A stretch of 20,828 nt of DNA from Chiloscyllium plagiosum (lineage: Eukaryota). A program made the translations under genes and the position numbers. The stretch lies in contig NC_057718.1 of NCBI RefSeq assembly GCF_004010195.1, positions 71,271,790-71,292,617 on the forward strand, in the 5' to 3' direction. The notes under the pieces were generated by a model. That model was not told the origin of the DNA and made no database searches. It saw nothing but the letters and a program-made list of their open reading frames with translations. Shown here piece after piece: positions 477-20,828 of the stretch. The first letter of the stretch is position 1. Every line of letters begins with the position of its first letter.

Positions 477-727
477 ATTAGGAGACAACAAGGTCTGCAG
501 ATGCTGGAAATCAGAGTTGAGAGTGTGTTGCTGGCAAAGCACAGCAGGTCAGGCAGCATCCAAGGAGCAGTAAAATCAACATTTCGGGCTGGAACCCTAC
601 ATCATAAATGAGATGGGAGGATTGGAAGGGGAAATTGTTGTGGGTTAGGACCAGTTCAAAGCCAAACAAATAAGTGTCAATAGAAGGGTACTGGTGGGAC
701 ATCGGGAGAGGAAGAAACAGAGAGCTT
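477..727 (-). mobile_element. Inverted arm of an internally deleted PLE (RT fragment fused to a hammerhead-bearing terminus)
   Basis: 608-727 is a reverse-complement homologue of about 1213-1326 (ELVLTHNNFPFQSSHLI vs ELILILNNFCFQSSHLI). About 520-580 is a reverse-complement homologue of 1330-1388. Degenerate hammerhead at 574-608. Confidence 0.8.
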
Positions 728-1388
728 CACAAGCCTGACTACCGCAGCCGACCTATCGTTTCAGCCTGCTGCTGCCTCATCGAACTCACCTACACCTACC
801 TCGATACTGTCCCTCCACTGGTCCAGGAACCCCTCCCCATATACTTTGGGACACCACCCATGCCCTGCACCTCCTCCAAAACTTCCATTTCCTCAGCCCC
901 CAAAGCCTCATCTTCACTATGGCATCCAGTCCCTCTACACCTCTAACTGCCATGACCAGGGCAATAGACAATAGGTGCCATTCTGCCCCTCGAGCCTGCA
1001 CCACCATTTAATATGATCATGGCTGATCATCCTTAATCAGTATCCTGTTCCTGCCTTATCTCCATAACCCTTGATTCCACTATCCTTGAGAGCTCTATCT
1101 AACTCTTTCTTAAATGAATCCAGAGACTGGGCCTCCACTGCCCTCTGGGGCAGAGCATTCCACACAGCCACCACTCTCTGGGTGAAGAAGCTTCTCCTCA
1201 TCTCTGTCCTCCAAGCCCTCTGTTTCTTCCTCTCCCGACATCCCCCCCCCCCACATATATTCTTATTCGTTTGCCTGAACTGATCCTCATCCTCAACAAT
1301 TTCTGCTTCCAATCCTCCCACCTCATTCCCAATTTTTCTGCTCCTCGTATGCTGCTTGACCTGCTGTGCTTTTCCAGCAACACACAAG
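728..1388 (+). mobile_element. PLE reverse-transcriptase fragment plus terminal repeat, interrupted by CR1 at 963-1207
   Basis: HKPDYRSRPIVSACCCLIELTYTYLDTV and, across frameshifts, LIFTM..SLYTS..HDQG|LQALCFFLSR..ELILILNNF are PLE RT motifs. TSD AGTTGAAATGCT at 465-476 and 1389-1400 brackets 477-1388. Confidence 0.85.
963..1207 (-). mobile_element. CR1 LINE 3' end (5'-truncated)
   Basis: MRRSFFTQRVVAVWNALPQRAVEAQSLDSFKKELD..GIKGYG is the typical CR1 ORF2 C-terminus, followed by a short 3' UTR and tail. Confidence 0.92.
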
Positions 1389-1560
1389 AGTTGAAATGCT
1401 GCTTCACCGAGAAAGACTGTTTAGGCCTTTGGATGGTGAGCAGGAAAGAGGTGAAGGGGCAGTTGTTGCACCTTCTGTAGTTATAAGGGAAGGTGCCATG
1501 GAGAGGGAGTGGGGGTGGTGTTGGTGGTTGTGGAATGGACAAGGGTTTCCCAGAGGGAAT
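1389..1560 (-). mobile_element. PLE remnant part 2 (Cys-rich linker before GIY-YIG), continuing 1-476
   Basis: HGTFPYNYRRCNNCPFTSFLLTIQRPKQSFSVKQHFN matches PGTFPCHRRNCKTCAHTSSLTSIQGPKGAFHIHQ in the 11650-12250 copy. It joins part 1 through the 12-bp TSD. Confidence 0.85.
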
Positions 1561-2039
1561 GATGAAATACTTGCCCATGGACATGATGATACCTATTGGA
1601 TATTGATAATGGGGCATTAAGTATCAGAGTATATGGACAGAGGGAAGTCAACAAAAAGAGGTTAACAAAAAGGTTGTTAAAGATTGTACACTGATAAGAT
1701 ATGATTTCTTCACAGAACCATGCAAATTTATTATGGATAGATGCTGCTGTGGATGATTGATCAGTTGGCAGCTGCTGTAATTAAACTCACTGCGATAATT
1801 AATTTGATGTACACTCTATTGTTATTTATACTGATGGTTATTTTTATTGTAGTGTTAATTTTCTGATCTAGGTTACATACTATTATTATACCACCTTGTG
1901 CAGCTGTCACTGATTGACATCTGCATTTACAATTGTAATATGCGTTGTCAAATATTATTGAACATTGAGCATTATGTGAACATTCCCAAATGTGTCTAAG
2001 CCAGCACAATCAGTTTGTTTCTTGTTCTGTGTGAAGAGA

Positions 2040-2110
2040 CCTGAAGCTGGTCAGACAGCATCAAAGGAGCAAAAGAGTTAATGTTTCGGTCCAAAACACT
2101 TTGTCAGGGT
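2040..2110 (-). mobile_element. Old solo PLE terminal fragment with a degenerate hammerhead
   Basis: Reverse complement reads CTGACAA-AGTGTTTTGGACC-GAAA-CATT-AACTC...GATGCTGTCTGACCAGC, with the same tail as the other termini. Confidence 0.6.
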
Positions 2111-2504
2111 GTCTGCATTTGCTGTTTGTAACATTATATAAGAGAGTTTTGTTCTGAGTTTTGTTTTGGGACTTCACCTCGGACTGGGATCACGACCGAT
2201 GCCAGAAATGAAAATAAGCCCCCAAACCGGCTGTCAATCAAGGGTCACTAACAGGGAGGGCTTGAATCTCATTGCTTTCTTTTCCCTCATTTTCATCTTT
2301 TTAAATGACTTAATAGATACTCCTATTTCTTTCTGTTCCAATTTTTTATTACTTAATTAATGTTCATATTTAAGCAAATTGCTGTTGTTGAATACATTGT
2401 TAAATGTACCTACATTTAACAAAAGCCAAAAGAACTGCTTGAAAACATCCTGTGATCCAAGACACTCCTCTAGCCAAGCTCTTCCAGTACACTGGAATCT
2501 ACTA

Positions 2505-3703
2505 GACGAGTTGGGGGTCATTGTTGCACAGGACATTGGTTAGGTCATTTTGGGAATACTACATGCAATTCTGGTCTTCTTCCTATTGGAAGGATTTTGT
2601 GAAACTTGAAAGGGTTCAGAAAAGACTTACAAGGATGTTTCCAGGGTTGGAGGATTTGAGCTATAGGGAGAGGCTGAATAGATTAAGACTGTTTTTGCTA
2701 CAGTGTCAGAGGCTGAAGGTGACCTTATACAGGTTTATAAAATCATGAGGGGCGTGGATAGGGTAATAGACAAAATCTGTTCCTTGGGTTGGGGGTGGGG
2801 TGGGGGGAGAGTCCAGAACTAGAGGGCATAGGTTTAGGGTGAGGGTGAGAGGGGAAAGATAGAAAAAAGGTTCTCCCATAGGTCCCTTCTACATAAAAAG
2901 GGTGGTACATGTATGGAATGAGCTGCTAGAGAAAGTGGTGGAGACTGGGACAATTATATTTAAAAGATATCTGGATGGAGCTGAGGCAGGACGGAAGTGA
3001 CATTTCAGGTGGCGTTTGTGGAGGGTTCGGCAGCAGAGGTAATGGTCATGTTCACAGAGGCTGTGGTTGTGGTGGCAATCGCAGGGACGGTAGTCCTGGA
3101 AGCGATTGCAGATACAGAGATTCTGGTGGCAATCGCGGAGGTGGTATGATTCTATGGTGGCCACAGTCCATGGAGCAGCAGGTCAGGAGTGACATAATTT
3201 GAAGCAGTGGTGGTGCCTGTAGAGCTGTGTGCATAGTGGCGTGCAACCTGTTCCGAAGGCCAGGGGAAGGGTCTGGAGTGCGGAGAGTGGTGTACTTACA
3301 TTCCTTTATGTCCGATAAGCTGCAGAAAAAGCATTTGTTGAGTGTGTGGATCCTTCTTAGGATGGAGAAGAGCCGAGGTCTTTTGCAGGTCTGGAAGAGT
3401 GTGGCCCTGAGCTGGGGCAGGGCGGCAGTGATGTCAGGCAACATTCAGGGAGAATTCAGCAGCAGAGGTAATGGTGGCGATCACAGAGATCGACGGGGGC
3501 TGCAGCGGGCGCAGAAGCGACCTCATTATTTGCAGCAGTAGCGGTACCTGTGATAGCCATGTAGCTGTACATGAGTAGAAAAGGTTTACAGGGATATAGG
3601 CCAAGTGCTGACAAACAGGACTAGATTTATTTAGGATAGCTGATAGGCATGGACAAGTTGGACCAAAACATCTGTTTCTGTGCTGTACATCTCTATGACT
3701 CTA
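2505..3703 (+). mobile_element. CR1 LINE 3' part, split by an insertion at 2979-3566
   Basis: HRTLVRSFWEYYMQFWS..KLERVQKRLTRMFPGLEDLSYRERLNRL. CTGGATGG(2978)|GTACATGA(3567) rejoins the CR1 3' end, which finishes with a CTCTATGACTCTA tail. Confidence 0.9.
2979..3566 (-). repeat. GC-rich diverged tandem unit (about 431-bp period, about 1.4 copies), probably from a PLE 5'/N-terminal region
   Basis: 2979-3047 resembles 3410-3476 (AGCTGRGGCAGGRCGGMAGTGA..GCAGCAGAGGTAATGGT) and 3187-3237 resembles 3514-3566. Minus ORF LPQLRATLFQTCKRPRLFSILRRIHTLNKCFFCSLSDIKECKY resembles shark PLE N-terminal sequence as I recall it. Confidence 0.6.
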
Positions 3704-3707
3704 AGTG

Positions 3708-4410
3708 ACTGTTATCATCATTGAATCACCCACTATCAACGTCCTTTGGGTTGTCATTGACCAGAAATTCAATTGGATTCACCATATAAACAGGGTCTGC
3801 AAGAGCAGTAAGAGGCTAAGAATACTATGCGGAGTAACATTTCCTGACTCCCCACAGCCTGTTCACCATTTACAAGCACAAGCGAGGAGTGTAATGGGAT
3901 ACTCCCCACTTGCCAGGATGAGTGAATCCCCAGTGAGGTTCAAGAAGCCTGACACCATCCAGGACAGAGCAGCTCTCTTGATTAGCACTATATTCACAAG
4001 CAACCATTCCCCCCACCACTGACATTCAATTGCAACATTGCCTATTATCCACAAAATACACTGCAGAAAATTCACGAAAGATCCTCAAACAAGCACCTTC
4101 CAAACTCACAATCACTTTCATCTAGAAGGTCAAGGGCAGCAGATATATGGAAACACTGCCACCTTCAGGTTTCCCTCCAAGCCACTCACCATCCTGACTT
4201 GGAAATATATTGCCATTCATTCACTGTTGCTGGGTCACAATTCTGGAATTTTCTCCCTAATGGTGTTGTGGGTCAACCTATAGCAGGTGGACTGCAGCAG
4301 TTCAAGAGGACAACTCAGCATCACTTTCTCAAGGGCAATTACGGTTGGGCAATACATGCTAGCCAGCCAGCAATGCTCACATCCGACAAAAATGATTAAA
4401 TAATAAAAAT
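3708..4410 (+). mobile_element. CR1/L2-group LINE (family B) 3' fragment
   Basis: ESPTINVLWVVIDQKFNWIHHIN..QARSVMGYSPLARM..DTIQDRAALLI is a post-RT LINE region, followed by an A-rich end. Homologous copies at 11016, 12251 and 19963. Confidence 0.8.
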
Positions 4411-4426
4411 AGGGTTGTTATATGAA

Positions 4427-5307
4427 CCATTTTCCAGTCCTCTGGTACCGTCCCTGACTCAAGTGATTCCTGAAGGATCACCGCCAATGCCTCTACATTC
4501 TTCTCTGGTATCTCCTTCAGAATTCTGGGATGTAGTTCATCTGGGCCATATATCCACCTTTAGACCTTTCAGCTTCCCCAGCGCATTCTTTTTCGTGGCC
4601 ATTACACTCACCTCTGTCTTGAAGTTCTGGTATGTTGCTAATGGTGAAAACTGATACAAAGTTTCAATTCCCTTGCCATTCCTTTGTTCTCTAATACCAA
4701 TTCTCGTGCCTCAATTTCTAGTGGTCCAATGTTCACTCTTCCTGCTCCCTGACCTTTGACTTATTAAAAAACTCTTGCAATATTCTTTTACAACACAAGC
4801 TAGTTTACATTCATATTTCATCTTCTCCCCATTTATTGATCTTTCAGTTATCCTCGGCTGGCTTTTAAACACTTCCCAATCCTTTGGCTTCCCATGAATC
4901 TTCATACATTGCATATTTTTTTTCTTTTGCTTTTATGCAGTCTTTGACTTTCTTTGACAGCAGAGTATATTTTTTCTTCCTTGGGATGAATTTCTATTGT
5001 GCCTCCAGAATTACCCACAGAAACACCTGCCAATGTTGCTCAACATTGTTCCCTGCTTAGCTCCCCTTCCAAACAATTCTGGCCAGTTCATGCCTCTTGT
5101 AGTTATCTTTATTAAGTTGTAATACCTTTATATCTGATTCCAGCTTCTCCCTCTCAAAATGCAGGTTAAATTCTATATTATGGTTACTGCCCCCATTGGG
5201 GTTCCTTCACCTTAATCTCCCTAATCAGGTCTGCCCCATTAGAATCCAGAATTGCCGGTTCCCTAATGGACTATACCACAAGCTGCTCCAAAAATCCATC
5301 TTGTAGA
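4427..5307 (-). mobile_element. Decayed CR1 ORF2 fragment (endonuclease C-terminus to pre-RT linker)
   Basis: Minus strand gives QDGFLEQLVV..REPAIL near 5240-5305 and KIHGKPKDWEVFKSQ..EKMKYECKLA..CKSF (ORF 4711-4914). Truncated at the Gypsy LTR start. Confidence 0.8.
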
Positions 5308-5384
5308 TGTAGTGACTGTAACAAGGTCAGCAAACTGAATGTCATAGAATAAGAATTCCGTGATTGGGGCTGTTAATCTGGTCC

Positions 5385-5551
5385 CTCTAGCTTATCTCTC
5401 CACGCTTCAGGCTCACTGCCTTTATTCCTGAAGGGCTTTTGTCCGAAACGTCGATTTTGCTGGTCCTTGGATGCTGCCTGAACTGCTGTGCTCTTCCAGC
5501 ACTACTAATCCAGAATCTGGTTTCCAGCGTCTGCAGTCATTGTTTTTACCT
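5385..5551 (+). mobile_element. Solo PLE terminal repeat with a hammerhead motif (3-nt core deletion)
   Basis: Near-identical to the reverse complement of 11651-11785. Reads ATTC-CTGA[---]A-GGGC-TTTT-GTCC-GAAA-CGTC-GATT at 5424-5456. Confidence 0.85.
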
Positions 5552-5749
5552 CCAAATCAGGGTAACCTTGCTTACATAAAATAATGTTACATAAAATAAC
5601 TCGCCCCCCGGCCGAGTTCCGTCACCGCGCCTAACCCCGCCCCCCCGCCGACCTCTGTCCCCGCCCCCAGGCCTAACCCCGCCCCCACATCCAGCTCCAG
5701 TCCCACACCAGGTCCTAGCTCCCCGCCCTGCCGTGTGTTCACCATCCCT

Positions 5750-6198
5750 NNNNNNNNNNNNNNNNNNNNNNNNNNNNNNNNNNNNNNNNNNNNNNNNNNN
5801 NNNNNNNNNNNNNNNNNNNNNNNNNNNNNNNNNNNNNNNNNNNNNNNNNNNNNNNNNNNNNNNNNNNNNNNNNNNNNNNNNNNNNNNNNNNNNNNNNNNN
5901 NNNNNNNNNNNNNNNNNNNNNNNNNNNNNNNNNNNNNNNNNNNNNNNNNNNNNNNNNNNNNNNNNNNNNNNNNNNNNNNNNNNNNNNNNNNNNNNNNNNN
6001 NNNNNNNNNNNNNNNNNNNNNNNNNNNNNNNNNNNNNNNNNNNNNNNNNNNNNNNNNNNNNNNNNNNNNNNNNNNNNNNNNNNNNNNNNNNNNNNNNNNN
6101 NNNNNNNNNNNNNNNNNNNNNNNNNNNNNNNNNNNNNNNNNNNNNNNNNNNNNNNNNNNNNNNNNNNNNNNNNNNNNNNNNNNNNNNNNNNNNNNNNN
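5750..6198. other. Assembly gap (449 N)
   Basis: Run of N. Confidence 1.
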
Positions 6199-6465
6199 TA
6201 TCTTCCGACTGGGATCCCTCCAACCGCAGGGGATGAACTTGGACTTCACCAGTTTCTTCATCCCCCCTCCCCTTGTCTCAGCCGAATCCCTCCAGCCCGG
6301 CACTGCCTTCCTGACCTGTAGTCTTCTTCTTGACCTCTCCGCCTCCACCCTACTCCGACCTATCACCCTCACCTTGACCTCTTTCCACCTATCACATTTC
6401 CAACGCCCCTCCTCCAAGTCCCTCCTCCCTACCTTTTATCTTCTCCTGCTGAACACTCTCTGCTC

Positions 6466-6501
6466 ATTCCTGAGGAAGGGCATGTGCCCAAAACGTCGAA
6501 T
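6466..6501 (+). ncRNA. Minimal type I hammerhead ribozyme motif, probably inactive (G12>A)
   Basis: Helix I ATTC/GAAT, core CTGAGGA plus extra A, helix II GGGC/GCCC, AAAA instead of GAAA, palindromic helix III ACGT, GTC cleavage triplet ending at 6497. Confidence 0.8.
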
Positions 6502-6737
6502 CTCCTTTTCCCTAGATGCTGTCTGACCTGCTGTGCTGTTCCAGCAATAAAGTTTCAGCTACATAAAATAATGAATGTCAGGGATATGGAGTTTGCAAAT
6601 GCTTGATGCAGTGAGAGGTAGTGCTATTATGTAAGTAAAGGATAATTGGTAATGGGATGCCAGACTCTGAAGTGTTATTTCAAATTCCTTTTCCTGAGAT
6701 CCACTATCAGATTAATTTTCCCAGTTCACCTGAATAT

Positions 6738-6994
6738 TCATAGAATCTCTACAATTTGGAAGCAGCCCAATCAGCCCATTGATTTCCTTACTGACCATCT
6801 GAACAGCATCCCAGTCTGACTCACCCCACTACCGTATTCCTGTAGACCTGCACTACCCATAGCTGATCCACCCAGCCTGCACATTCCTCGACACTATGGC
6901 TATGCTAAATTGCCCAATCTGCTTAACTGCACATCTTTGGACTGTGGGAGGAAACCAGAGCACCAGGAGAAAGCCCACGCAGACACAGAGAGAA
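6738..6994 (-). mobile_element. HE1-like shark SINE, 5'-truncated
   Basis: Reverse complement carries the central TTCCTCCCACAGTCCAAAGATGTGCAG block and the GATTCTATGA tail shared with the other four copies. Confidence 0.88.
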
Positions 6995-7405
6995 ATTGTT
7001 TTATGTGATCATGATTAAAATGTGCCATTAGGTGGAAATGGCTTCTTAGTTTGTGTTCATTTCACCCATTTGTTGACAAATTGTACAGAATCAGGCCCAT
7101 AATGGAAATACATACATACCAAAGGTGTTCCCTTCTGAGGGACGTTGGTCCCCATTCTGTTGATAGCTGTCTCACACACACACACACACAAAAAAAATCA
7201 CAAATCGTACAATCATTCAAACTAGGCATCCTTTAATTCATGTATTACAATTTACCAAGTTGCCCAATTTATACAAAGAATTTACCAAAGTGTCCAAACC
7301 GTCCCAGATTATTTTCAGGTGGGGTCCCGGAATAATTTACCAAGCTCCCCAATTTCACGTATGGGATTCTAACCCATTTTTTCCTCTTAGGGAACTATAA
7401 CTCCC
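6995..7405 (-). mobile_element. gag: Probable endogenous retrovirus fragment: leader plus gag matrix N-terminus (ATG at 7155)
   Basis: My translation from 7155: MGTNVPQKGTPLVCMYFHYGPDSVQFVNKWVK*TQTKKPFPPNGTF, then after a 1-nt frameshift NHDHIKQ. The MG start, TPL and (W/F)PxxGTFN recall gamma/epsilon-type matrix proteins. Confidence 0.55.
7173..7197. repeat. (CA)9 microsatellite plus A-run
   Basis: Read directly. Confidence 0.95.
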
Positions 7406-7497
7406 TTACTCTGAGCAAGCAGGTCAGAGTCCACGTACTGTGCACATGTAAATAAAGGGTGACTGGGTGACAGGATGCTTCAGTGTAGTTATTGTAG

Positions 7498-7700
7498 TGG
7501 TGACAAGAGACAACAGTACACTCTTGAAGAAAATTTGCTCACAACAGTTGTCGTTGAGTTGGAGTAAGCATCTCTGGCATCATGCCTTTATTTGAAAAGA
7601 TTGACTTACATGATCTTGCCGTTGAAGACTCGGCCCAGCATGTGGACAGAAAGCATTACTTTTTCCTGATAGATGAAAGAAAAACAGGTTTCTCAGAGAT
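7498..7700 (+). mobile_element. gag: Gypsy PBS and gag N-terminal remnant
   Basis: PBS-like TGGTGACAAG (decayed TGGCGACGAG) at 7498-7507. ATG 7582 gives MPLFEKIDLHDLAVEDSAQHVDRKHYFF, a decayed F(D)xxxEDWxxYxERxxxFF Gypsy gag motif. Confidence 0.7.
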
Positions 7701-7744
7701 TCTCCTCACTCTCGGAACCGTCTCTGACTCAAAGACATGATCTG

Positions 7745-7820
7745 AGACATTATGTACCCTGGCACCTGGGAGGCAACACACCAACAGTGAGTCTCTTTCA
7801 TTCCCACAGAACCCCTTATC
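7745..7820 (-). mobile_element. Short CR1 ORF1 (esterase) fragment
   Basis: Reverse complement encodes GFCGNERDSLLVCCLPGARV, the CR1 ORF1 SGNH-esterase VxCLPGA motif. Confidence 0.7.
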
Positions 7821-7824
7821 AGGC

Positions 7825-8397
7825 ATGGCAAGAGTTATTGGGGAAAGGCAATTATGATGTGATTAGGCAAAATGTAGGATGCATAGGATGGGGAAAGAAA
7901 TGGCAGGGGATGGGCACAGCTAAAATGTTGAGCTTATTCAAGGGAAAGCTACTGAGTGTCCTTGATAAGTATGCATCGGTCAGGCAGACAGGAAATGGTC
8001 AAATAAGTGAGCTATGGTTTACTAAAGAAGTTGAATCGCTTTCAAGAGGAAGAAGACCGCCCATGTTAGGATGATATGTGAAGACTCACTCAGGGCACTT
8101 GAATGTTAGCTACAAGTTAGCTCTCTCTTTAGGTCTTTCCTGGCTAAGAGGAGCCAGGAGAGGACATGAGAGGTCATTGGCAGATAGGATAAAGTAAAAC
8201 CTTAAAGCTGTCTATGGGTATATGAGGAATAAATGAATGACTAGAGAAACATTAGGGCTATCCGGGATTGCAGTGGGAAGTTGTGCGTGAAGTCAGAGGA
8301 GATAGGAGAAGTGCTTAATGAATATTTTTCGTCAGTATTCACACTGGAAAAAGACAATGTTGTTGAGAAGAATACAGAGATACGGGCTACTAGACTA
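7825..8397 (+). mobile_element. CR1 ORF2 internal fragment
   Basis: GKGNYDVIRQ..IGW..LFKGKLLSVLDKY..WFTKEVESL and EEIGEVLNEYFSSVFTLEKD. Confidence 0.88.
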
Positions 8398-9698
8398 GAC
8401 TGGAGGATTGATATAAAAGGAATTCCATTTGTATTCTTTGCAATTAGGGACCTACCTAATGCACAGCTAAATTCAGTCTATTTGAATTAGTTGTTGGATA
8501 TGAGATGAGAGAACCACTGAAATTAATTAGGGAGAAATTGGTGAGTCAGAGTTCAGAGACTACATTATTGGACTATGTCTCAAATTTTAGGGAGACATTA
8601 AATACAGTAGGTGACAGCATTTTGAAAGTAGCACAGCATATGAAGAAACAAGAAGCAGACAAGGAATCAAAAATTCATAATTTTGTTCAGAGAGATGAGC
8701 TCCCAGTGGTAGGTGAGCCTTTAAAAGCAAGGCTTAGTGGGGTTCAAAGCAAAAAAAAAAACGAAATTGTGTGAAATGAATTATTTGATAAGTATGCCAC
8801 ATAGGTGGAAAATTCAGTGTGCCATGTGGATATGCTCAAATGGTATTTTACGTGGGAAGGAAAGCAAAAGGAGAATAGGTTACCGATACAAGAGAGTGAA
8901 AAACCAAATCCAGATGATTCTGAATTTCACAGTCCTCAAATTAAATTGGACAATGAGGAACTTAATTTCTCCCAATTTCTGATATTTTCCAGTGGAAAAT
9001 TAAAATGACCTGAAAGATTTCCCCATACTGATGAAGATGGAAGTACAATGGTTCTTGGGACTAAGTGGTTTTTAGTAAAAAGTTGTACCACTGACTTCTG
9101 TTGAAGGGCAAAAAAAATTCAGTGGACAGGAGTGTCAAAAGACATGATAACCTGAAAGCTGTGTTGACCACAACTCCAGTGTTAGCAACACCTAATTACA
9201 CAAAGTTGTTTAAGGTGGTTGTTGATGCAAGTAATGTGCTGTATTCTTCCAAGTAGACAGTGAGTATATAGGAAGACCTATTGGGCATTTCTCCTGAAAA
9301 TTGAATATTATTCAAAACAAATATTCCACCATTGAGAAAGAGACTTTGAGTTTGGTGTTGCTGTTGCAATATTTGAACTTGTGTTGCCAGTAATGCATGA
9401 GATAACCTCTTAACATTTTTGAAAATAGTTTAAGGATAAAAATACCAAATAGTTTAGATAGAGTTTATTGTTCCAGTCGTTCAATTTGAACATTATACAT
9501 GGGTCAGGATGAGAGAACAAAACGCCGACACGGGGGTCACGACTTTTTTGACAAGGGAAGATGGAGGTATTCGGTAACAAGAAAATGGACCAAGATTAGT
9601 ATTAGAGGGGGAGAGGGGGAGAGAAGTAATGGCAGGAGTCTTTGAAATTGCAGCCAAATTTTGTATATTCATGGCTCCCTTTTTTTGAAGGAGGGAAG
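8398..9698 (+). mobile_element. pol: Gypsy pol remnant with Gmr1-like order: integrase C-terminus, RT C-terminus, RNase H, PPT
   Basis: Integrase C-terminus/GPY-F region: KGIPFVFFAIRDLPN..EPLKLIREKL..LLDYV..MNYLIS..VCHVDMLKWYF (8400-8850). Then FLGLSGF, LKAVLTTTPVLATPNYTKLFKVVVDAS and RPIGHFS*KLN..KYSTIEKETLSLV (RT end and RNase H, 9045-9545). PPT GAAGGAGGGAAG at 9687-9698. Confidence 0.85.
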
Positions 9699-10066: not shown

Positions 10067-10072
10067 ATACAG

Positions 10073-10390
10073 GCTGTGTAGTTAGCACTGCAGCCTCCCA
10101 GCACCAGGCACCAGGTTTGATTCAATCCTTGGGTGACTGTATGGAGTTTGCACATTCTTCCTGATTTGCGTAGATTTCCTCTGGGTGGTCTTGTGTCCTA
10201 CAGTCCAACGACGTGCAAATTAGGTGGATTGGCCATGCTAAACTGCCCATTGCGTCCAGGGAGATGTAGGTTAGTGGGTTATCCATTAGAAATGCAGGGT
10301 TTTGGGGTCTGGTTGTGAGGCTGTTCAGAGAGTTGGTGTGACCTAATGGGCCAAATGGCCTCCTTCCACACTGTAGGGATTCAATGATGA
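10073..10390 (+). mobile_element. HE1-like tRNA-derived V-SINE, near full length
   Basis: tRNA-like head (GTTAGCACTGCAGCCTCCCAGCACCAGG, B-box-like GGTTTGATTC at about 10114), GGAGTTTGCACATTCT core and CTGTAGGGATTC tail. Confidence 0.9.
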
Positions 10391-10479
10391 TACAGCTTTC
10401 TGTTACTGCAAAAGAGTGGAGTTCTCCCTCTGCCACTAGATTGTCTCAATTTTTTAAGAGGGTTGAGTCTGGCCCATAA

Positions 10480-11007
10480 TATTTTGCAAGCAATGTCCAG
10501 AGAAAGATGCAGTGATTTTTGACGAGTTTCTTTCTGAGCAGTTCTGTGATGGAGGACTCTGCTGTATGGATTGTTCCCAGGACACACACCAAGACAAACA
10601 TTGACTGCGCCTGGAGAACCATCAACTCAGTGAAAGATGCTCTTTGATCTGCCCAAAACCTTGGTCTTCTAGTGAAAAGCATTGAGCTTGATCTTGTCAT
10701 CTTGTAGATTGGCACATTCCTAAGTCCAGGACTATGTACTGAGGGATGCACTAAAGCCTAGGGCAGGTATTGCCAAAGCACAATGGGGAAAGACCATTTC
10801 TAAGGTCCTTCTGCAAAGTATATTTGCATACATTTGCCTCAATGTATGTAAAATGTCCTCAAGTAAGAAATGCCTTTCGTTTTTTTAGAAATGCAGGGGA
10901 TGACAAATTCCAATGCTTGTTTTTCTTGATATGCAAAGACTGTAAGAACTGCTTTAATACCTACAGGTGTAGATAAAGATTTTTTATGAATAAGTATATT
11001 TTTGTAA
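10480..11007 (+). mobile_element. Tx1/L1-group LINE 3' end (decayed)
   Basis: LYGLFPGxHTKTNIDCAWRTINSVKDAL*SAxN and CRLAHS*VQDYVLRDALK, then an AT-rich 3' UTR ending ATGAATAAGTATATTTTTG. Family call is from recall. Confidence 0.65.
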
Positions 11008-11015
11008 TTATTAAG

Positions 11016-11610
11016 TGCAGTTACCATTAAAATCACCATGCCCATCCTGAGGGTCATACTGACCATAAATTGAACTGAATCAACTGTACAAATACTATAG
11101 CTACAAGTGCTGATTAGAGGCTAGGAATTTGGCATTGAATAACTCACCTCCTGAACGCTGCAAGGCAAGTCCATTATATACTAGTAGCGTGATCAACTAC
11201 TTTCCACTTGGCTAGATGAATCCAGCTCCATCAATACTCCACTCTACATCATCCAGGACAAAGCAACAGTTGACTGACACCCTATCCACCCCCTCCACCA
11301 CTGATGTACATTGGCTGCAGCAGGTGCCACCTACAAGATTCACATCAGTAACTTATCTTCAGTGGCTCTTCTAAACCGCAACCTCTACCACATAGTATCG
11401 CAAAGACAGTGGATACTCTTGAGAGCACTCCCAGATTCCCTTCAAAGCAACACAGGTGTAAACCTGATGTGGATTTATAAATGAAGCTCATGTACAGTTG
11501 CTGGGTCAAATCCTGGAACTCTTCTTAACAACACAGTTGTTACCTCCAGTGGCCTGCAACAGTTAAAGAGCCAGCTCATCACCACCTTCTCACTGGCAAT
11601 AAACACAGGC
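11016..11610 (+). mobile_element. Family B LINE 3' fragment (old copy)
   Basis: Colinear homology to 3708-4410 (AACTCACCTCCTGA, CATCCAGGACAAAGCA, CACCACCTTCTC, GGCAATAAA). Confidence 0.75.
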
Positions 11611-11649
11611 CAAACTGAAGCAGTTCAAATGCAGCTAGATCTAAACAGT

Positions 11650-12250
11650 TTCTGGATCAGTGGTGCTGGAAGAGCACAGCAATTCAGGCAGCATCCGAGG
11701 ACAGGCAAAATCGACGTTTTGGGCAAAAGCTCTTCATCAGGAATAAAGGCAGAGAGCCTGAAGCGTGGAGAGATAAGCTAGAGGAGGGTGGGGGTGGGGA
11801 GAGAGTGGCATAGAGTACAATAGGTCAGGAGACGAAGGTGATAGGTCAGGGAGGAGAGGGTGGAGTGGATAGGTGGAAAAGGAGCTGGGCAGGTCGGACA
11901 AGTCCGGACAGGTCAGGGGATCGAGTTGCTGGAGGTTAGAATTTGGTTGATTGGTGTGGGTGTCTCGGAGATGTTCCCTAAAGCGCTCTGCTAGGAGCCG
12001 CCCAGTCTCCCCATTGTAGAGGAGACCGCATCGGGAGCAACGGATACAATAAATGATATTGGAGGATGTGCAGGTAACACTTTGATGGATGTGGAAAGCT
12101 CCTTTGGGGCCTTGGATAGAGGTGAGGGAGGAGGTGTGGGCGCAGGTTTTACAGTTCCTGCGGTGGCAGGGGAAAGTGCCAGGATGGGAGGGTGGGTCGT
12201 AGGGGGGGCGTGGACCTGACCAGGTAGTCACGGAGGGAACGGTCTTTGCG
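11650..12250 (-). mobile_element. 5'-truncated PLE: Cys linker, GIY-YIG, hammerhead terminus; 12-bp TSD
   Basis: PGTFPCHRRNCKTCAH..TCTSSNIIYCIRCSRCGLLYNGETGRLLAERFREHLRD. TSD GATCTAAACAGT (11638-11649) and GATCTGAACAGT (12251-12262). Internal deletion near 11940. Confidence 0.92.
11709..11744 (-). ncRNA. Minimal type I hammerhead motif (G12>A, helix II mismatch)
   Basis: Reverse complement ATTC-CTGATGA-A-GAGC-TTTT-GCCC-AAAA-CGTC-GATT. Confidence 0.75.
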
Positions 12251-13629
12251 GATCTGAACAGTATCCGTCTTGGGTTGACAAGTGACATATAACATTCATG
12301 CCACACACAAATGCCAGGCAATGACCATCTCCAGTAAGAGTCAATCTAACCAACACGTGTTGACATTTGATGGTGTTGCCCTCATTGAATCCCCCACTAT
12401 CAACATCCTTGGGGTTACCATTAACCAGAATCTCAAATGGACTGGCCACATAACAGTGCCTCCAAGAGCAGGTCAAAGGCTAGAAATACTGTGGCAAGTA
12501 ACTCACAAAGCCTGTTCATCAAAGCACAATCAGGGGTGTAGTGGAATACTCCCACATACCTGGAAGAGTACAGCTCCAACAACACTCAAGAAAGTTGACA
12601 CCGTCCAGGACAAAGCAACCTATTTGATTGGCATCACTTCCACAAACATCCACTACCAATGGTCAGTTGCTGTAGTGGCTGTTACCTGCAAGATGTACTG
12701 CCGAAAGTCACCAAAGATCCTAATCAAAGATTCACCAAAGTACCTTCCAACAAATGACCACTTCCATGGGAACGACCATCTGCGCATTTCCCTACAAGCC
12801 ATTCACCATACTTTCTTGGAAATATATCACTATTCCTTCACTGTCACTGGGTCAAATCTGGAATTCCCTCCCTGCAGCTAAAGAAGACAGCTCAGCACTA
12901 CCTTCTCAGGGGCAACTAGGGATGGGCAATAAATGCTCACCAACCAGCGATGCCCAAGTTCCACAAGTGAACAAAAAAAAAGTCAATATGCAAATGGACA
13001 AAAAATTTCCTTGAAGGTCCTCAAGTTCACAACTGTACATTGAATACCTAATCCAGTAATGAAATGGTTGTTTTAAAAAGCGCTGACACACATTTCTTCT
13101 GGTATTCAACCAGAATTCCCACTCCCAACACATTTAATACTAAGTCTATAAATTCAAAAGTGAGTTCAAAGTTGTCATGCCTCACTGGGTTAGCACACTG
13201 AAAATCAAGAGCCATTATTCCCAGAGTACCCACAAAAGTTAAAAATGTTAAACAAGTTCTGGCTGCAAAATTCCCATTTACCTGATCTTCAGACTCTGAA
13301 AAGATTTCTGTACTTAAAACCCACTATTTATTACAAATAATTATGCTGTCATTAAAGGTGAACAATTATGAACCATTAGCATGTAATTCCACTTGTTAAT
13401 AGTGTTATAAACACCCCCAGTCACGCACAGAGATAAATGAGGGAAAACTGGGAAAGCAATTCAATGATCTCTGATACAGGGTATGTTGAGATGGTTCTTG
13501 TGGTCAGAATACTGCTTTTCGGACTTCTTTCTCCAAGGATATTTTCACAGGTTTTCAGGAGGCACAGAAGCTGGTTCACACATTTATAAAATCTCTTACT
13601 TGTAAATTAAAATGTCACAGCTGACAGCA

Positions 13630-16600
13630 CTCAGTGCAGCTGCAGAATGTTCTCAACAGGGACGGTGAGCAGCCACAAGTCATTGTACATGAGGGCAAAA
13701 TGATGTAAGTAATAATAAAGATGAGGACTTTATTAGAGTGCTAGGAAAAAAAGTTTAAAAACTAGTCGGTGATAATCTCTGGATCACTTCCAGTGCCATA
13801 TACTAATGGGAATAAGAAAAGAAGACATGGCAGATGAATGCATGGCTAAAGAATTAGTGTATGGGCAGGGATTCAGATTTTTAGATCATTGGGATCTTTT
13901 CTGAGGCAAAGGTGACCTGTTCAAGATGGACGGGTTGCACCTGAACTGGAGGGGGACCAATATCTTCATGGCCAGATTTGCTAGTGCGACAAGGATTAGA
14001 TTAGATAAACTAGATTGGCAGGAAGGTGGGAGCGTCAACAGCAGGGAGGAAAGAGAGGGGCTAGAAGGAGATATAGTAATCCGAAATAATAAGTTAAAGA
14101 GACAGATCAGGCTGGAACACAACAGGGAGCAAGGAATGTCCATTGGATTAAATTGTATCTATTTCAATACAAAAGGGCTGACAGGTAAAGTCAATGAACT
14201 CAGGATGTTGATAGGTATGTGGAACTGGGAATATTATAGCCATTACAGAAACAGGGCTAAGGGAGGGATAGGATCTGCCAGGTTATAGATGCTTTATGTG
14301 GCACAGAGGTGGAGGAAAGAGGGCCGGTGGGGGAATGGCATTTTTGATTAAGGGAAGTATCACAGCAGTAATCAGATTAAATAATTGAGGAATCATCCAG
14401 TGAGGCTTTGTGGGTGGAGCTAAGAAGTAAGCAGGGGATGGTGATGTTATTGTACTATAGGCCCTGAAATAGTCAGCAGGAATTAGAGGAACAAATATGC
14501 AGGAGATTAAGGAGACTTACAAGAGTAATACAGTTGTCACATAGATTGGGACTGCCATAGCATTAAGGGCTTGGATGGGATGGAATTTGTTAAGTTTGTT
14601 CAGGAATGTTTTCTCAAGCAGTATATAGAGGTTCCTACTTGGGAAGGGGCAAAACTTGACCTACTCTTGGGAAATAGAACAGGACAGGTGACAGTGGGGG
14701 AGCACTTGGGACCAATGACCATCATTCTATTAATTTTAAAATAGTTATGGAGAGGGACAAAACTGGCCCATAGGTTCAAGTTCCAAATTGGGGCAAGGTG
14801 AATTTTGATGGAATTAACAGGAGCTTGCAGAGGTTGATTAGAGTAGTTTGTTTGCAGGCAAAGGGACCTCCGGCATGTGGAAGGCCTTTAAAAAAGTGAG
14901 ATTGCTAGAGTTCAAGGTCTATATGTTCCTGGGAGTTGGCAGGAATATAGGGAACCTTGCATGACAAGAGATATTGAGGATTTGACCAGAAACAAAAGGA
15001 AGCATGGTTCAGGTACAGGCAGCAGAGATCAAGGGAATCCCTGGAGGTATATAGGAGATACAAGAGCTTACCGAAAAAGGAAATAAAGAGCACAAAAAGG
15101 GAGCACAAGACAGCTTTGGCTGAGAAGATTTGGGTGAATCCAGAGAGAATCCTTAAGTATATTAAAAGGAAAAATAACAACTAGTGACAGAATAGGACTG
15201 CTCAAGGTCCAAAGTGGACATGTTTGTGTGGAACCACAGGAGATGAGTGAGCTCCTCAAAGAATATTTCTCCTCTGTTTACCGTGGAGAAAGACATGGAT
15301 ATTTGGGAACTTCGGGAAGTTAGTGATGATATCTTGGGGGCAGTCCCTATCACTGCACAGGAGGTGTTAGACATATTAGAACATATTAAGCTGAATAAAT
15401 CTCCTGTCATGACCAGGTATATCCAAGAACGCTGCAAGAGGCTAGAGAAGAAATTGCAGGGGCCTGACTGATGTATTTGCATCATCATTAGCCATGGGTG
15501 AGGTTCCGGAAGACTGGAGAGTTGCGAAATTTGTGCACCTGTAAACCTCACATCTGTGGTAGGTAATTTACTTGAAGATTCTGAGAGATAAGATATACAT
15601 GCATTTAGAAAGACAGGGTTTGATTAGGAGTAGTCAGCATGGCTTTGTGCAAGGGAGATCATGCCTCACAAATTTGTTAGAGTTCTTTGATAAGGTGACC
15701 AGGATGGTTGATGAGGCAGGGTGGTAGATGTAGTCTATATGGATTTCAATAAAGCCTTTGATAAGGTTCCACATGGTAGGCTACTCTGGAAAGTGAGACC
15801 ACATGGAATCCAGGGAGACCTAGCAAATTGGATAGACAATTGGCTTGATGGTAGGAAGCAGAGAGAAATAGTGGAAGATGCTTGTCAAACTAGAGGCCTG
15901 TGACCAGTGGTATGCCTCAGGAGTCAGTGCTGGGCCCATTGCTGTTTATTAACTCAATCAATGATTTGGATAAGAATGTACAAGGCATGATTAGTAAGTT
16001 TGCAGATGACACTAAAATAGGCGGTATCGTGGACAGTGTGGAAAGTTGTGAGAAATTTCAACAGGACCATGACTATTTGGGGAACTGGGTCAAGAAATTG
16101 AAAATGGATTGTCATATAACGGAGTGTGAATTATTGCATTTTGGAAAGGTCAAATCAAGGTAGGAGTTTCATAGTGATTGGTAGAGCCTTAATGAGTAGT
16201 GGAACACAGTGACCTTGGGGTCAGGTGTCCGGTTCTCTGAAAGTGGAGTCACAGGTAGATATGGCAGTGAAGAAGGCTTTTGGTACACTGGCCTTCAGTC
16301 AGGGCACTGAGTATAGAAGTTAGGAAGTTATGTTGCAGTTATATAGGATGTTGGTGAGGCTGCACTTGGAGTATTGTGTTCAGTTTTGGTCACCTTGCTT
16401 TAGGAAGGTGCTAAAGAGATTTACAAGGATGTTACCAGGACTCAATTGTCTAAGTTATAGGGAGAGGCTTGACAAGCTGGGACCTTTTTCTTTAGCGTGT
16501 TGGAGACTGAGGGGTCCAAGATGATGAGAAGCATGAACAGGTTAAATGCAATGATTAACACTGCTACCTCAAAGCACTAGGGACCTGGATCAATTTCAAG

Positions 16601-17128
16601 GTCGGGTAGCTGTCTATGTAGGCTTTGCACATTCTCTCCATGTCTGCATTGGTTTCTTCCGGCTGCTCCGATTTCCTCCCACAATCCAAAGATGTGCAGT
16701 TAGGTTTTGGCTGTGCTAAAAAGCCCATAGTGTTCAGGGATATGGAGGTTAGGTGCATTAGTCAGGGGTATATTTAGGATAAAGGGGGAATGGTGGGTTG
16801 CTCTTCGGAGGTTGGTGTGGACTTGGTGGGCCAAAGGGCCTGTTTCCCACTGTAGGGATTCCATGGATTCTATGAATCAATAATGGGAACCTGAGGGCAA
16901 CTTTTTTTTTCACACAGAGGGTGGTATGCATAAGGAAGGAGTGGTCAGCGAAAGCTTTTGAGGTAGGTTCATTAACATTTAAAAGGAATTTGAACAAAGA
17001 CATGGATAGGAAATGTTTAGAAGGATATGGGCCAAGTTCACGGAAATGCAGTACATGTGGATGGACATATTTGTCGGCGTGGACCAATTTGGGCCAAAGG
17101 GCCTGTCTCTGTGCTGTCAGACTCTTTA
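13630..17128 (+). mobile_element. Long decayed CR1 LINE: ORF1 SGNH esterase C-half, ORF2 endonuclease and RT, 3' tail
   Basis: ORF1: GEQPQVIVH..ND and DGLHLNWRGTNIF. ORF2: LNCIYFNTKGL, VDVVYMDFNKAFDKVPH, SGMPQESVLGPLLF, ISKFADDTKIGG, LVRLHLEYCVQFWSP, FFTQRVV. Many stops and frameshifts. Confidence 0.95.
16553..16877 (+). mobile_element. HE1-like SINE nested in CR1
   Basis: tRNA-like head remnant, TTCCTCCCACAATCCAAAGATGTGCAG core, GGATTCTATGA tail. Confidence 0.9.
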
Positions 17129-17575
17129 TAAAAAAAATTACTGATGGAAAAAAATAACCTAGTTTTCTTCAAGCTTAAAGTGGCTTTTACTGCAGAGAAC
17201 AAGGAGGGACAGCTCCGGAGATGGTGAAGATCTGAAAGCTTCCCAATATCCTCTTCACAGCTTCAAGCTGTTCAGCCAACTGAGAACCAATCACATAACT
17301 GTTGCCTGGCAGAAAGCCTTTGTCTTCGACAACTGGACTACAGAACAATCAACCACAGGTCATCAACCAAAGCTCCACTGAGGCACAACTCTTGTTCTGG
17401 AACTAGTTTGTACTGTACATCCAGAACGAGCAACTGTGTCAATAGTGTTTACAATGAGTGTCAGATCACTTGCTTTCAAATCATGTCACAATTCTATGAC
17501 AAACCTTGGTTTTAAAATAATTACTTTCTCAAACATGAACAGACATTATGGAGAAACTGGCAGCATCTGTGAGAG

Positions 17576-17713
17576 AAGTTAAAAATCACAACACCAGGTT
17601 ATAGTCCAACAGGTTTAAAGCTAGTGTGCTTCCAATTAAACCTGTTGGACTATAATCTGGTGTTGTGATTTTTAACTTTGTACACCCCAGTCCAACACCG
17701 GCATCTCCAAATC
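17576..17713. mobile_element. Short hairpin element, probably the inverted terminus of a second PLE family
   Basis: 43-bp arms at 17576-17618 and 17636-17678 with one mismatch and a 17-nt spacer. Flanked by TGAGAGAA at 17570-17577 and 17714-17721. Confidence 0.7.
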
Positions 17714-17715
17714 TG

Positions 17716-18480
17716 AGAGAACATAGAACAATACAGCACAGAACAGGCCCTTCGGCCCACGATGTTGTGCCGAACACGTGTACCTATCCATGTACCTATC
17801 CAATTGTCACTTAAAGGTCACCAATGATTCTGACTCTGCCACTCCCACAGGCAGCACATTCCATGCCCCCACCACTCAGGGGTAGGTAAAGAACCTACCC
17901 CTGACATCCCCCCCATACCTTCCACCTTAAATTTACACTCTGTTGTACCCGGGGAAAAAGTCTCTGACTGTCTACTCTATCTATTTCCCTGATCATTTTA
18001 TAAACCTCTATCAAGTCACCCCTCATCCTTCGCCGTTCCAATGAGAAAAGGCCTAGCACTCTCAACCTACCCTCGTATGACCTATTCTCCATTCCAGGCA
18101 ACATCCTGGTAAATCTCCTCTGCACCCTCTCCAAAGCTTCCACACCTTCCCTAAAATGAGGCGACCAGAACTGCACACAGTACTCCAAATGTGGCCTTAC
18201 CAAGGTCCTGTACAGCTGCAACATCACTTCACGACTCTTGAATTCAATCCCTCTGCTAATGAATGCTAATACACCATAGGCCTTCTTACAAGCTCTATCC
18301 ACCTAAGTGGCAATTTTCAAAGATCTATGAACATAGACCCCAAGATCCCTCTGCTCCTCCACCTTACTAAGAACCCTACCGTTAATCCTGTATTCCGCAT
18401 TCTTATTTGTCCTTCCAAAATGGACAACCTCACACTTGACAGGGTTGAACTTCATCTGCCACTCCTCAGCCCAGCTCTGC
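17716..18480 (-). mobile_element. Relatively young 5'-truncated CR1 LINE
   Basis: LQSWAEEWQMKFNPVKCEVVHFG..QRDLGV..LYRTLVRPHLEYCVQFWSPH..GDLIEVYKMI with a single stop. TGTTCTATGTTCT tail. AGAGAA at 17716-17721 and 18481-18486. Confidence 0.95.
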
Positions 18481-18490
18481 AGAGAAAGCA

Positions 18491-18530
18491 GAGTCAACGT
18501 TTCTAATCCAGTGACCCTTCTTCAGAACTC
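18491..18530 (-). ncRNA. Hammerhead motif of a variant PLE terminus (element halves at about 17550-17577 and 18481-18540)
   Basis: Reverse complement GAGTT-CTGAAGA-A-GGGTC-ACTG-GATTA-GAAA-CGTT-GACTC. Both core boxes intact, 5-bp helix I with one G-U pair, decayed helix II. Confidence 0.7.
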
Positions 18531-18663
18531 AGTTCTTTTCAGTCCACAATGAAAAATAACCACAATGACCTTTACAAAGTGCTGGAGTAACAGATTATAT
18601 TCTAATAAGACTTAATCTTTACTTTTTCCTTGATCTGTATTTCAGAATGCCAAACTTCATCAC

Positions 18664-18789
18664 GCGAAAGCGAGTACTGCAAATGCTGGAGATTAGAGTC
18701 GAGTGTGGTGCTGGAAAAGCATAGCAGGTCCGACAGCCTCAGAGAGCAGGAAAATCGACGTTTCCGGCAAAATCCCTTCAACAGATTCA
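18664..18789 (-). mobile_element. About 126-bp solo hammerhead/terminal element with an 8-bp TSD
   Basis: Reverse complement CTGTTGA-A-GGGATTTTGCCG-GAAA-CGTC-GATT plus the shared tail. TTCATCAC at 18656-18663 and 18790-18797. Confidence 0.8.
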
Positions 18790-18865
18790 TTCATCACTCT
18801 CCAGGAAAATACACTAGAAGTGAATGCCTGACAATATTCCTTAATTGCCAAGAGTTTAACAGTTT

Positions 18866-18880
18866 GGGGGGGGGGGGGGG
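18866..18880. repeat. Poly-G (15 nt)
   Basis: Read directly. Confidence 0.95.
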
Positions 18881-20119
18881 AGATGTACACCAGTTTTATG
18901 TCTCCGAACCAAGACCGACCCACCATTTCACAATCCCCACCATTTTCCAGCTCCAGTTATACGAACCATGACTCAACCATCACGAAATATATCTTCCAAC
19001 ATCTATCAAAATATTATGGGAGAGTTGCTCATCACCAACACACAATTTGCAGAGAGAAAGGGGACTTTTGGTTTTGCGAAGGATGAATGTTACATTACGT
19101 TTTACGCCCGTCTATACAGATTTCCTTGTTTGGAATCCCTCTACGTGATTATGTGCAGCCTCGCAGTTCTCGTCGCTATTGGTTGCAGCAGAAGGCAAGA
19201 TTTAACTGGTGTAGGTTTACTCGCTGTTAAATTTTCCATTTGCTCTGAACCTACCTCTCAAACAGTGTATCCTACAACAAACAACCCAAAAATAGCCATT
19301 TCATATATGTGATGCAAAGTATTTCTTCACCTATGTTGCGTTCACGTCAAATGCAATCCATCCTTACCTATTTTTGAAAGGATTATACACGAAGAGGTAA
19401 AATACATCACCATTTACTGCATTCGAGAAAACTGTTTTGGTTTAAGTTATCAGAAAAAGACAATAATATATAGCGTAAGTGCTCATTAAGAAACAAACAT
19501 CACCCACCTATAATATTGATTATCTTTGTACGGAATCAGATCATCTTTTAAATCCATGTAAGCTTCTTTAACCCTTTTGCAGAAATATTTCAGTTCTATA
19601 TACAGAGGATTTTCAAATGAAGCGTCTGAATCCATGGCTTGCTGGTATTCCCAAATGGCGGCTGATTCCTTTCAAGATTGAATATCTTCGGAAACAATAC
19701 GGAATCATCAAAATCTGCCTCTATTTGCCTTTATACTGCGAGCAAATATCGTTTTAAAATGTGTGACGAAATAGATCAGCTGCCCCTTCGTTCGGGAGTG
19801 ATGACGATTAGTCAATAAGATACACACAGTCTTGTGTCAGGAGGAGACCGGCTGCAAACTAGTAGCACTAAGATCCATATGGTCACTGGACAAGTTAACC
19901 CTCTCGATTCATGTCCAAATCTCAACATCATCCTGTCCAAAAGCTGCCACAATATATCCGTGATGGAGGGGTTGAATGTTTAAGGTGATGGGATGTTGAT
20001 CAGGTGGACTGCTTTATATTGGATAAGGGTGAGATTCCAAGTATTGCTGGAGTTGCACTCATCCAGGCAAGTGAAAAATATTTCATCGCACGTCATACGT
20101 GACCGTTTTAGATAGTGGG

Positions 20120-20200
20120 GTCGAGAGTGGGGTGCTGGAAAAGCGCAGCAGGTCAGGCAGCATCCCAGGAATAGGAGAATCGACATTTCAGGCATAAGCC
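20120..20200 (-). mobile_element. PLE terminal fragment truncated inside hammerhead helix II
   Basis: Reverse complement GGCTTATGCCT-GAAA-TGTC-GATTCTCC..GATGCTGCCTGACCTGCTGCGCTTTTCCAGCAC. Confidence 0.8.
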
Positions 20201-20540: not shown

Positions 20541-20828
20541 TAGTTAACAGTCTAGTCAATGCTAACTCCAAGTATGGGCATGGTGCAAGATTCAGTTACC
20601 ACTGAATCTCAAGGAGACATGGTTATGTGAGAAACAAAAGCTCACTCACTTTAATAATTTCAGTCCGAGACGAATATCTGAATCCGCCATTTATTGATAC
20701 ACCTATAGGTGGGTGCTTTGTCTAATTACCAGGTAAGGTAATGACAAAATGCACACTATATCCCAAAAAACCCTTACAATTTATACAGTTTCTTTTCCCA
20801 TATGTTTTCCTTATTCCATTGTTTGTTC

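Follow-up and report, generated by a model that had tools for sequence, protein, structure and literature searches.

Minimal hammerhead motifs in a shark genome as ends of Penelope-like retrotransposons, probably mostly copied from uncut RNA, with U6 junctions suggestive of germ-line cleavage

The stretch of DNA considered here, hereafter the window, is 20,828 nucleotides (nt) of the genome of the shark Chiloscyllium plagiosum (contig NC_057718.1, positions 71271790-71292617). A first-pass annotation, made from its sequence alone, had listed eight dispersed minimal hammerhead ribozyme motifs there and had viewed these as a separate self-cleaving RNA system. All eight motifs indeed are found, at the positions and on the strands that had been listed. 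They are, with near certainty, the ends of endonuclease-bearing Penelope-like retrotransposons (PLEs), that is, the pseudo-long terminal repeats (pseudo-LTRs) of a known retrotransposon class rather than a system of their own. Very probably they are damaged pseudo-LTR hammerheads that were mostly copied from uncut RNA, with a minority of that RNA likely self-cleaving at the predicted bond. On balance, too, these sequences may be read as a fossil record, i.e., of about a million short copies made from normally uncut RNA starting at the ribozyme, along with U6 chimeras which would record germ-line cutting and 5'-OH ligation prior to retrotransposition. As motif and host class both have been in print since 2014, the finding in its original wording does not constitute new biology. 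A literature search for hammerheads in sharks or for U6-PLE chimeras returned nothing relevant, with most subscription journals, repeat databases, and some supplements outside of its reach.

A common tail of 35-100 nt is found downstream of seven of the eight motifs, which thus are ends of a repeat rather than free motifs; at the motif at 18491 the tail alignment covers 16 nt only. The hammerhead at 11709-11744 (minus strand) stands 3' of a coding fragment for a CX4CX2C cysteine linker and GIY-YIG endonuclease. That endonuclease fragment matches Pfam GIY-YIG just under cut-off (E 0.0014), and its closest named protein, 91% identical, is from Chiloscyllium punctatum. Of 30 genomic loci retrieved with this fragment, the window locus included, 24 have a hammerhead 64-397 nt past the endonuclease match. 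An upstream walk from the endonuclease reached reverse transcriptase (RT) motifs and two near-full elements, L153 and L106. The first consists of a 591-amino-acid (aa) open RT frame (Pfam RVT_1, E 1.8e-6, just below cut-off), a frameshift, linker, endonuclease, untranslated region (UTR), hammerhead, and tail, while the second has its start codon ~40 nt past the tail end. The order of the element is, that is, hammerhead, ~100-nt tail, 40 nt, start codon, RT, cysteine linker (CHRRNCKTC in P0001), GIY-YIG endonuclease, UTR, hammerhead, and tail. The same hammerhead-tail block occurs both before the start codon and after the open reading frame (ORF) (L028, L106, L146, and L180), as in the pseudo-LTR layout of endonuclease-bearing PLEs (PMC8557442). 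No fully intact PLE ORF was seen among the elements examined, inside of which there are many assembly gaps, and long open frames of 873-1446 aa were rejected as artefacts of the N runs of such gaps.

With the Neptune and Nematis elements of Craig et al. (2021, PMC8557442) these elements share a C-terminal GIY-YIG endonuclease with CCHH motif, partial tandems, an inverted 5'-truncated partner, and a tail. They share as well the CX2-5CxxC linker between RT and endonuclease, which is common to Neptune and Nematis and which excludes Penelope/Poseidon. Since a 2026 preprint, in its available text, names only Neptune and Poseidon in vertebrates, the clade would be, by elimination, Neptune. Two families with a long helix II (L205:4051-4096 and L122:4718-4763) carry U as the extra base and a tail of another kind, their 5' ends lie well before the ribozyme, and they may belong to another PLE clade.

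Every window copy has a lesion, just as had been annotated. The core is broken at 574, lacks 3 nt at 5424, carries G12>A at both 6466 and 11709, and carries A6>T at 18753. At 2075, C3 is combined with A8 and the palindrome has decayed, at 20178 the 5' part is absent, and at 18491 helix II is broken but the core is intact, this being the sole window copy with a whole core. A strict pattern, CTGANGA-N14-30-GAAACGT, is matched by only one of the eight motifs (18497-18525, minus) and by 0 of 100 window shuffles. Rfam returned no hammerhead model among the window's 11 matches at E<=10, with the gathering threshold not reached, in what was a scan of damaged copies. Intact cores are abundant elsewhere, however. 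Patterns run on the 3.56-Gb assembly found 93,494 exact intact cores of the GGGC/GCCC helix II type (18,825 in the CTGATGA subset), 18,270 of the AGCT family, and 1,122 of the U3-A8 family, with 0 in the reversed-pattern control each time. The very high copy number that had been supposed is thereby borne out: more than 112,000 exact intact cores versus ~4,000 hammerheads in coelacanth and ~9,000 in Xenopus (PMC4209133), i.e., over tenfold the counts published for coelacanth and frog, albeit by different search methods. A sample of 115 ten-kilobase stretches, placed at round coordinates along contigs C1-C47 and holding 1,119,855 non-N bases, yielded 404 distinct copies with four hidden Markov models and none when the sequence was reversed. 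That density, ~360 copies per Mb, would correspond to something like a million copies genome-wide. In the same unselected stretches the core occurs 140 times versus 21 in reversed sequence, and the core plus a helix II of at least three pairs 91 times versus 2.

The families have the core C3 U4 G5 A6 N7 G8 A9 ... G12 A13 A14 A15.1 ... U16.1 H17, and core, helices, and linkage to the element together bear out the earlier identification of minimal type I PLE hammerheads. An unpaired base between 9 and 10.1, the extra nucleotide after A9 already remarked upon, is present in 87 of the 91 core hits with helix II. The loop-less, palindromic helix III is equally evident, with 15.2-16.2 reading CG in 46 of these hits, GC in 11, CA in 19, TG in 8, and something else in 7, where CA and TG are CpG-decay forms of the palindrome. 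GC stands at 15.2-16.2 in all of the first 100 matches listed of the 18,270 of the AGCT family, and by this swap of AGCU for ACGU an intermolecular helix III is retained. U3-A8 replaces C3-G8 in the family so named (93 U3-A8, 7 C3-A8, and no G8 among the first 100 matches listed of 1,122). Members of this latter family (L246-L257) have a G-U in helix II, and head-to-head pairs a few bases apart are common among them.

At the level of sequence, the motif matches the published metazoan minimal PLE hammerhead consensus (Cervera and De la Pena 2014, PMC4209133). Shared features are type I topology without loop III, a palindromic 15.2-16.2, an extra base between 9 and 10.1, G10.1-C11.1, and a short helix I. 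There are, as well, many families per genome, mostly single copies with opposite-strand pairs, plus the U3-A8 core variant, which in that study is from Schistosoma. What differs is that the main families here have a helix II of 4-5 bp and that the host is a shark, with no shark term occurring in two of that paper's supplement files other than file 1. A short palindromic helix III likewise characterizes the small PLE hammerheads that cleave as dimers (Luense et al. 2016, via PMC6765202), and dimer cleavage is predicted here too.

Judged from aligned families, covariation between families is seen in helices I and II, at the 3-8 core pair, and in the palindrome of helix III. For this comparison 535 relaxed hits gave 14 clusters with at least three members and 13 distinct rows, one row being a false hit (antisense of ORF start). 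A MAFFT alignment of 14 exemplars shifted the AGCT family by one column, and anchored columns were used for the pair counts. Positions 2.2-1.2 are paired in 12 of 13 rows through three pair types (0 of 5000 shuffles), 2.1-1.1 in 11 of 13 (14 of 5000), and both 10.2-11.2 and 10.3-11.3 in 13 of 13, through several pair types (2 and 1 of 5000, respectively). The first two pairs of helix I and pairs 2-4 of helix II stay paired across families through several pair types. The covariation between families that had been described is borne out. In the large families the strands of helix I are ATTC/GATT, with a U-U mismatch. A 4-bp ATTC/GAAT helix I belongs to the CTGT-loop family only; the 6466 copy, with its variant ATGT loop, is one of that family (204 of 211 identical). 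The active consensus that had been proposed turns out to be a rare hybrid of two families, with 47 exact copies in the genome.

How these copies were made may be read from their ends. The 3' ends of the window's families are bimodal, falling near +55-65 and +95-101 from the cut, i.e., ~40 nt apart, and those of the long-helix-II families fall near +40 and +78. Bimodal 3' ends are a PLE tail signature and, with the element of the anole lizard, the two ends correspond in vitro to two RT start sites inside of the RNA (PMC11167929). The 5' ends were assessed for 190 of the 404 copies, those in the six families for which a genuine upstream reference exists; hits that were weak or at an edge were left out, as were families B2, D, E, U, F, and G. 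Of these, 108 begin within -12 to +10 of C3, 43 begin at least 40 nt upstream, and only 2 begin 3 nt or less from the cut. In the U3-A8 family seven of nine short copies, and in the TTAT family six of eight, have the first base of helix I as their 5' end. An inverted partner lies immediately upstream of 149 of 365 copies, versus 2 of 365 in the control. As complementary DNA that spans the ribozyme implies a template RNA that was uncut, most copies likely were reverse transcribed from uncut element RNA. The simplest reading of the 5' pile-up would be run-off of reverse transcription to a start site at helix I. In several families TATA-like words can be seen by eye ~30-40 nt before helix I, and transcription of Drosophila Penelope likewise begins within the pseudo-LTR (PMC2377424).

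Indirect evidence for cleavage comes from chimeras with U6. In two of 30 U6 loci the sequence passes directly into the PLE tail, at position 0. When the genome was scanned with a pattern that left 46 spacings open, six joints between U6 and the tail came up, every one of them at the cut. Altogether seven distinct loci, including L264, are confirmed as U6 3' ends joined at the cut, with U6-joined tails being of both TTTT and TTCT types. Because the base before the cut is C, the U tract of U6 has no letter in common with the element at the joint. Among the seven is L178 (G000:C1:38726444-38729674, minus), the only one of 30 ORF-start loci to begin at the cut. There, at L178:1190-1850, the U6 3' end is followed by a tail from the cut, the 5' part of the ORF, and then a second tail, again from the cut. 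Hammerhead cleavage produces a 5'-OH end. RtcB, in turn, ligates cyclic-phosphate U6 to 5'-OH RNA (PMC6789731). The U6 junctions suggest that the motif likely cuts itself in the germ line. They resemble the U6/LINE-1 chimeric pseudogenes attributed to RtcB (Moldovan et al. 2019, PMC6789731) in that a U6 ending in its U tract is joined to retrotransposon RNA and then copied to DNA, but they differ in that the partner's 5' end is here one fixed bond, the predicted cut, whereas the LINE-1 positions vary. Many other U6 loci (e.g., L270, L274, L279, and L282-L287) run into a common head which we take to be tRNA-like and of the short interspersed nuclear element (SINE) type.

From these ends and junctions we infer a run-off model along with cleavage in vivo. 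Transcription would begin at or close to the base that opens helix I. DNA would then be nicked by the element's protein, which would prime reverse transcription inside of the RNA, at either tail site, as the anole element does in vitro, and run-off to the RNA 5' end would give rise to hammerhead-plus-tail insertions of 90-135 nt, with use of both nicked strands giving head-to-head pairs. Two ribozyme copies, moreover, may pair via their 4-nt palindrome (ACGU or AGCU), forming helix III, and would cleave 3' of position 17, probably at a low rate and aided by protein. The resulting 5'-OH product would be ligated, probably by RtcB, to a cyclic-phosphate end such as that of U6. Inserted copies then would decay under little or no selection. 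If this is true, then 5'-OH ligation is the very chemistry required by the proposed circular PLE intermediate, and the U6 junctions bear on whether animal PLE hammerheads cut in cells. The natural families (4-bp helix I, 2-bp helix I, U3-A8 core, and AGCU palindrome) represent ready constructs and controls.

Both run-off and cutting can be compared with PAc, a PLE of the Poseidon clade from the green anole (Frangieh et al. 2024, PMC11167929). PAc too has a hammerhead in its pseudo-LTR, two favoured 3' ends that delimit a 30-40 nt tail, and copies made from uncut RNA, with no RNA-seq ends at the cut. The start codon, however, is here ~140 nt past the cut, versus inside of the ribozyme in PAc, and the protein here has a cysteine linker before the endonuclease. 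The available text of that paper contains no description of U6 joined at the cut.

A number of observations weigh against parts of this reading. In terms of structure, 2.3-1.3 is paired in only 7 of 13 rows, which 934 of 5000 shuffles match, and the third and fourth pairs of helix I are not clearly distinct from shuffles. The 3-8 covariation rests on one changed family (750 of 5000 shuffles), and kinship between families inflates the shuffle tests generally. In the two largest families helix I amounts to two Watson-Crick pairs, a U-U mismatch, and one further pair, and monomer folds mostly favour a collapsed core. In terms of transcription start, G is the first untemplated base in 8 of 27 plain short copies versus 7.4 expected, and in 11 of 32 inverted short copies versus 8.6 expected (small and crude tests, both), and 5' ends of the long-helix-II families F and G mostly lie 39-120 nt further upstream. 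U6, in addition, joins a PLE internally, within the endonuclease-coding region, in two of the 30 U6 loci (L276 and L280, by eye). RNA run X21 (poly(A), single-cell, species match not established) has no start or end peak at the cut and has reads over the motif on both strands, 97% of which continue into other sequence, though as a fragmented library it is a weak test of cleavage. In that run, reads over the PLE ORF (L153:1400-2900) are 3-4 fold strand-biased and those over hammerhead plus tail are unbiased.

Selection on copies is a further such matter. Over 162 copies, the core outside of CpG and polymorphic columns has 52 changes versus 63 expected from the tail, and in 54 copies with a long upstream anchor there are 13 core changes versus 25 expected. 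A slight excess of core conservation thus persists, and weak selection on copies may have contributed. Core CpG sites, including the catalytic G12, are off the family majority in 29 of 146 cells (~20%), and single copies decay largely like their flanks. As read from sequence, source elements appear to have been under selection, and the inserted copies to have decayed mostly neutrally thereafter. The selection on RNA structure that the first-pass annotation proposed may therefore be accepted between source families though not for the inserted copies.

From a different perspective, the motif might be kept as a folded signal, i.e., a promoter element, a protein-binding site, or an RT stop, without cutting in cells, and with the 5' pile-up reflecting RT stopping or template switching. 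Mutants of the anole element's hammerhead left in vitro insertion unaffected, and in that system the cut was not the end point of any RNA-seq read (PMC11167929); here, too, only 2 of 190 ordinary copies start at the cut, helix I of the big families is weak, and an excess of cap G is absent. Such a signal nonetheless would not be expected to place seven U6 junctions exactly on the scissile bond, with no letter in common at the joint, nor to preserve, through the U3-A8 double change and the CG-to-GC swap of the palindrome, pairs which are relevant only to the catalytic fold, and the TATA-like words upstream of helix I speak against it as well. A folded signal that is never cut consequently is considered to be unlikely.

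Distinctly more doubtful is that the short copies are an independent SINE or retrozyme, with its own transcription, self-cleavage, small or circular RNA, and continuing selection. Short intact copies are very numerous, their core is kept slightly better, mini tandems occur (L146, 374-nt spacing), and non-LTR retrozymes derived from PLE pseudo-LTRs have been described in vertebrates, including one chondrichthyan (bioRxiv 10.64898/2026.07.22.740005). Yet in place of the tandem arrays of a retrozyme the window has dispersed copies, in both orientations and of different families, with two-unit tandems (L146) being rare. Copies end in PLE-type tails and have inverted partners, longer ones are continuous with PLE UTR and ORF, the core CpG sites have decayed as indicated, and RNA reads of the motif are from both strands and inside of other transcripts. 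Hardly credible at all is domestication of single copies to cut host transcripts with effect on genes: with intact cores exceeding 100,000 and the motif occurring in poly(A) RNA reads the raw material exists, but all eight window copies are damaged, core plus palindrome are retained in just 48 of 162 sampled copies (a lower bound), and a lone copy is without the partner that helix III requires. Damaged pseudo-LTR hammerheads, copied for the most part from uncut RNA and occasionally cut, hence are preferred here.

The window itself contributes no feature that is peculiar to it. With ~360 copies per Mb in the sampled stretches, eleven pieces in 20 kb are ordinary, and these include ones outside of the earlier list, i.e., a core-deleted copy at ~1325-1385 and an inverted pair from another hammerhead family at 17576-17719. 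Toward its start is an inverted-repeat insertion, 480-1385, of which 480-727, 728-962, and 1205-1385 are parts. Its minus-strand arm has, by alignment, a damaged TTAT-loop-type hammerhead (574-608) with a 98-nt tail, together spanning 480-612, the 5' side of which is joined to a PLE RT fragment (614-727, minus). A plus-strand RT fragment, 79% identical to L153, occupies 728-962. The plus-strand arm (1205-1385) has an RT fragment at 1205-1324 and then the 5' strand of helix I and a tail (from 1331), with the ribozyme interior deleted. Both arms join an internal RT fragment to the hammerhead start, one being without the ribozyme interior, and an unrelated repeat lies at ~963-1204. The tail at 1331 was considered as possibly joined at the cut, but the 5' strand of helix I precedes it, so that the core instead is deleted. 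Adjoining the 480-612 copy is a weak PLE endonuclease match at 202-474 (minus, E 7e-5), an older fragment.

The copy at 2045-2110 (minus) is an old, strongly diverged hammerhead with a short tail, identical to its best reference at 48 of 64 positions. At 3214-3426 (minus) there is an N-terminal part of the PLE protein gene without a hammerhead (tblastn E 5e-16 to the N terminus of L106). A TTTT-loop family copy follows at 5384-5553 (plus), 161 of 170 identical to L029, with 44 nt of upstream UTR, a hammerhead at 5424-5456 whose predicted cut is between 5452 and 5453, and a full tail to +101. Next is a CTGT-loop family copy, 5600-6559 (plus), which contains an assembly gap: its 5' part has a proline-rich region before the RT (5679-5749) and then the N run, while its 3' part has the endonuclease end and UTR (6200-6465), the hammerhead at 6466-6501 with predicted cut between 6497 and 6498, and a tail to +63. 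A 12-nt direct repeat (5588-5599 and 6560-6571) flanks this copy. Viewing 5384-6560 as one element with two pseudo-LTRs was rejected, as the two hammerheads come from separate families and a direct repeat flanks the second insertion by itself.

On the minus strand, 11648-12252 is a 5'-truncated PLE with cysteine linker plus GIY-YIG endonuclease fragment (11926-12252), UTR, the hammerhead at 11709-11744, which has a helix II mismatch beside its G12>A, and a tail to +63, the predicted cut being between 11713 and 11712. Head-to-head remnants of the second hammerhead family, that with the AGCT palindrome, make up 17576-17719, the plus-strand copy of which (17617-17719) retains the last 7 nt of the ribozyme. 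This stretch is a long hairpin with weak microRNA-like Rfam matches which in fact consists of head-to-head tails of that family, and such PLE head-to-head pairs can resemble microRNA precursors. The copy at 18478-18530 (minus) has a 5-bp helix I, an intact core, a predicted cut between 18496 and 18495, and a tail ending after 16 nt, while that at 18666-18788 (minus) combines A6>T with a full tail to +95, and at 20122-20200 (minus) a TTAT-loop hammerhead retains its 3' two thirds and is followed by a tail. Long repeats at ~2500-2960, 13740-16520, and 17750-18480 are presumably fragments of long interspersed nuclear elements of CR1 type, and the 18491 copy abuts one of these. A SINE-like repeat of ~300 nt is present in four copies, at ~6800-6990, 10075-10390, 16560-16870, and 20265-20545.

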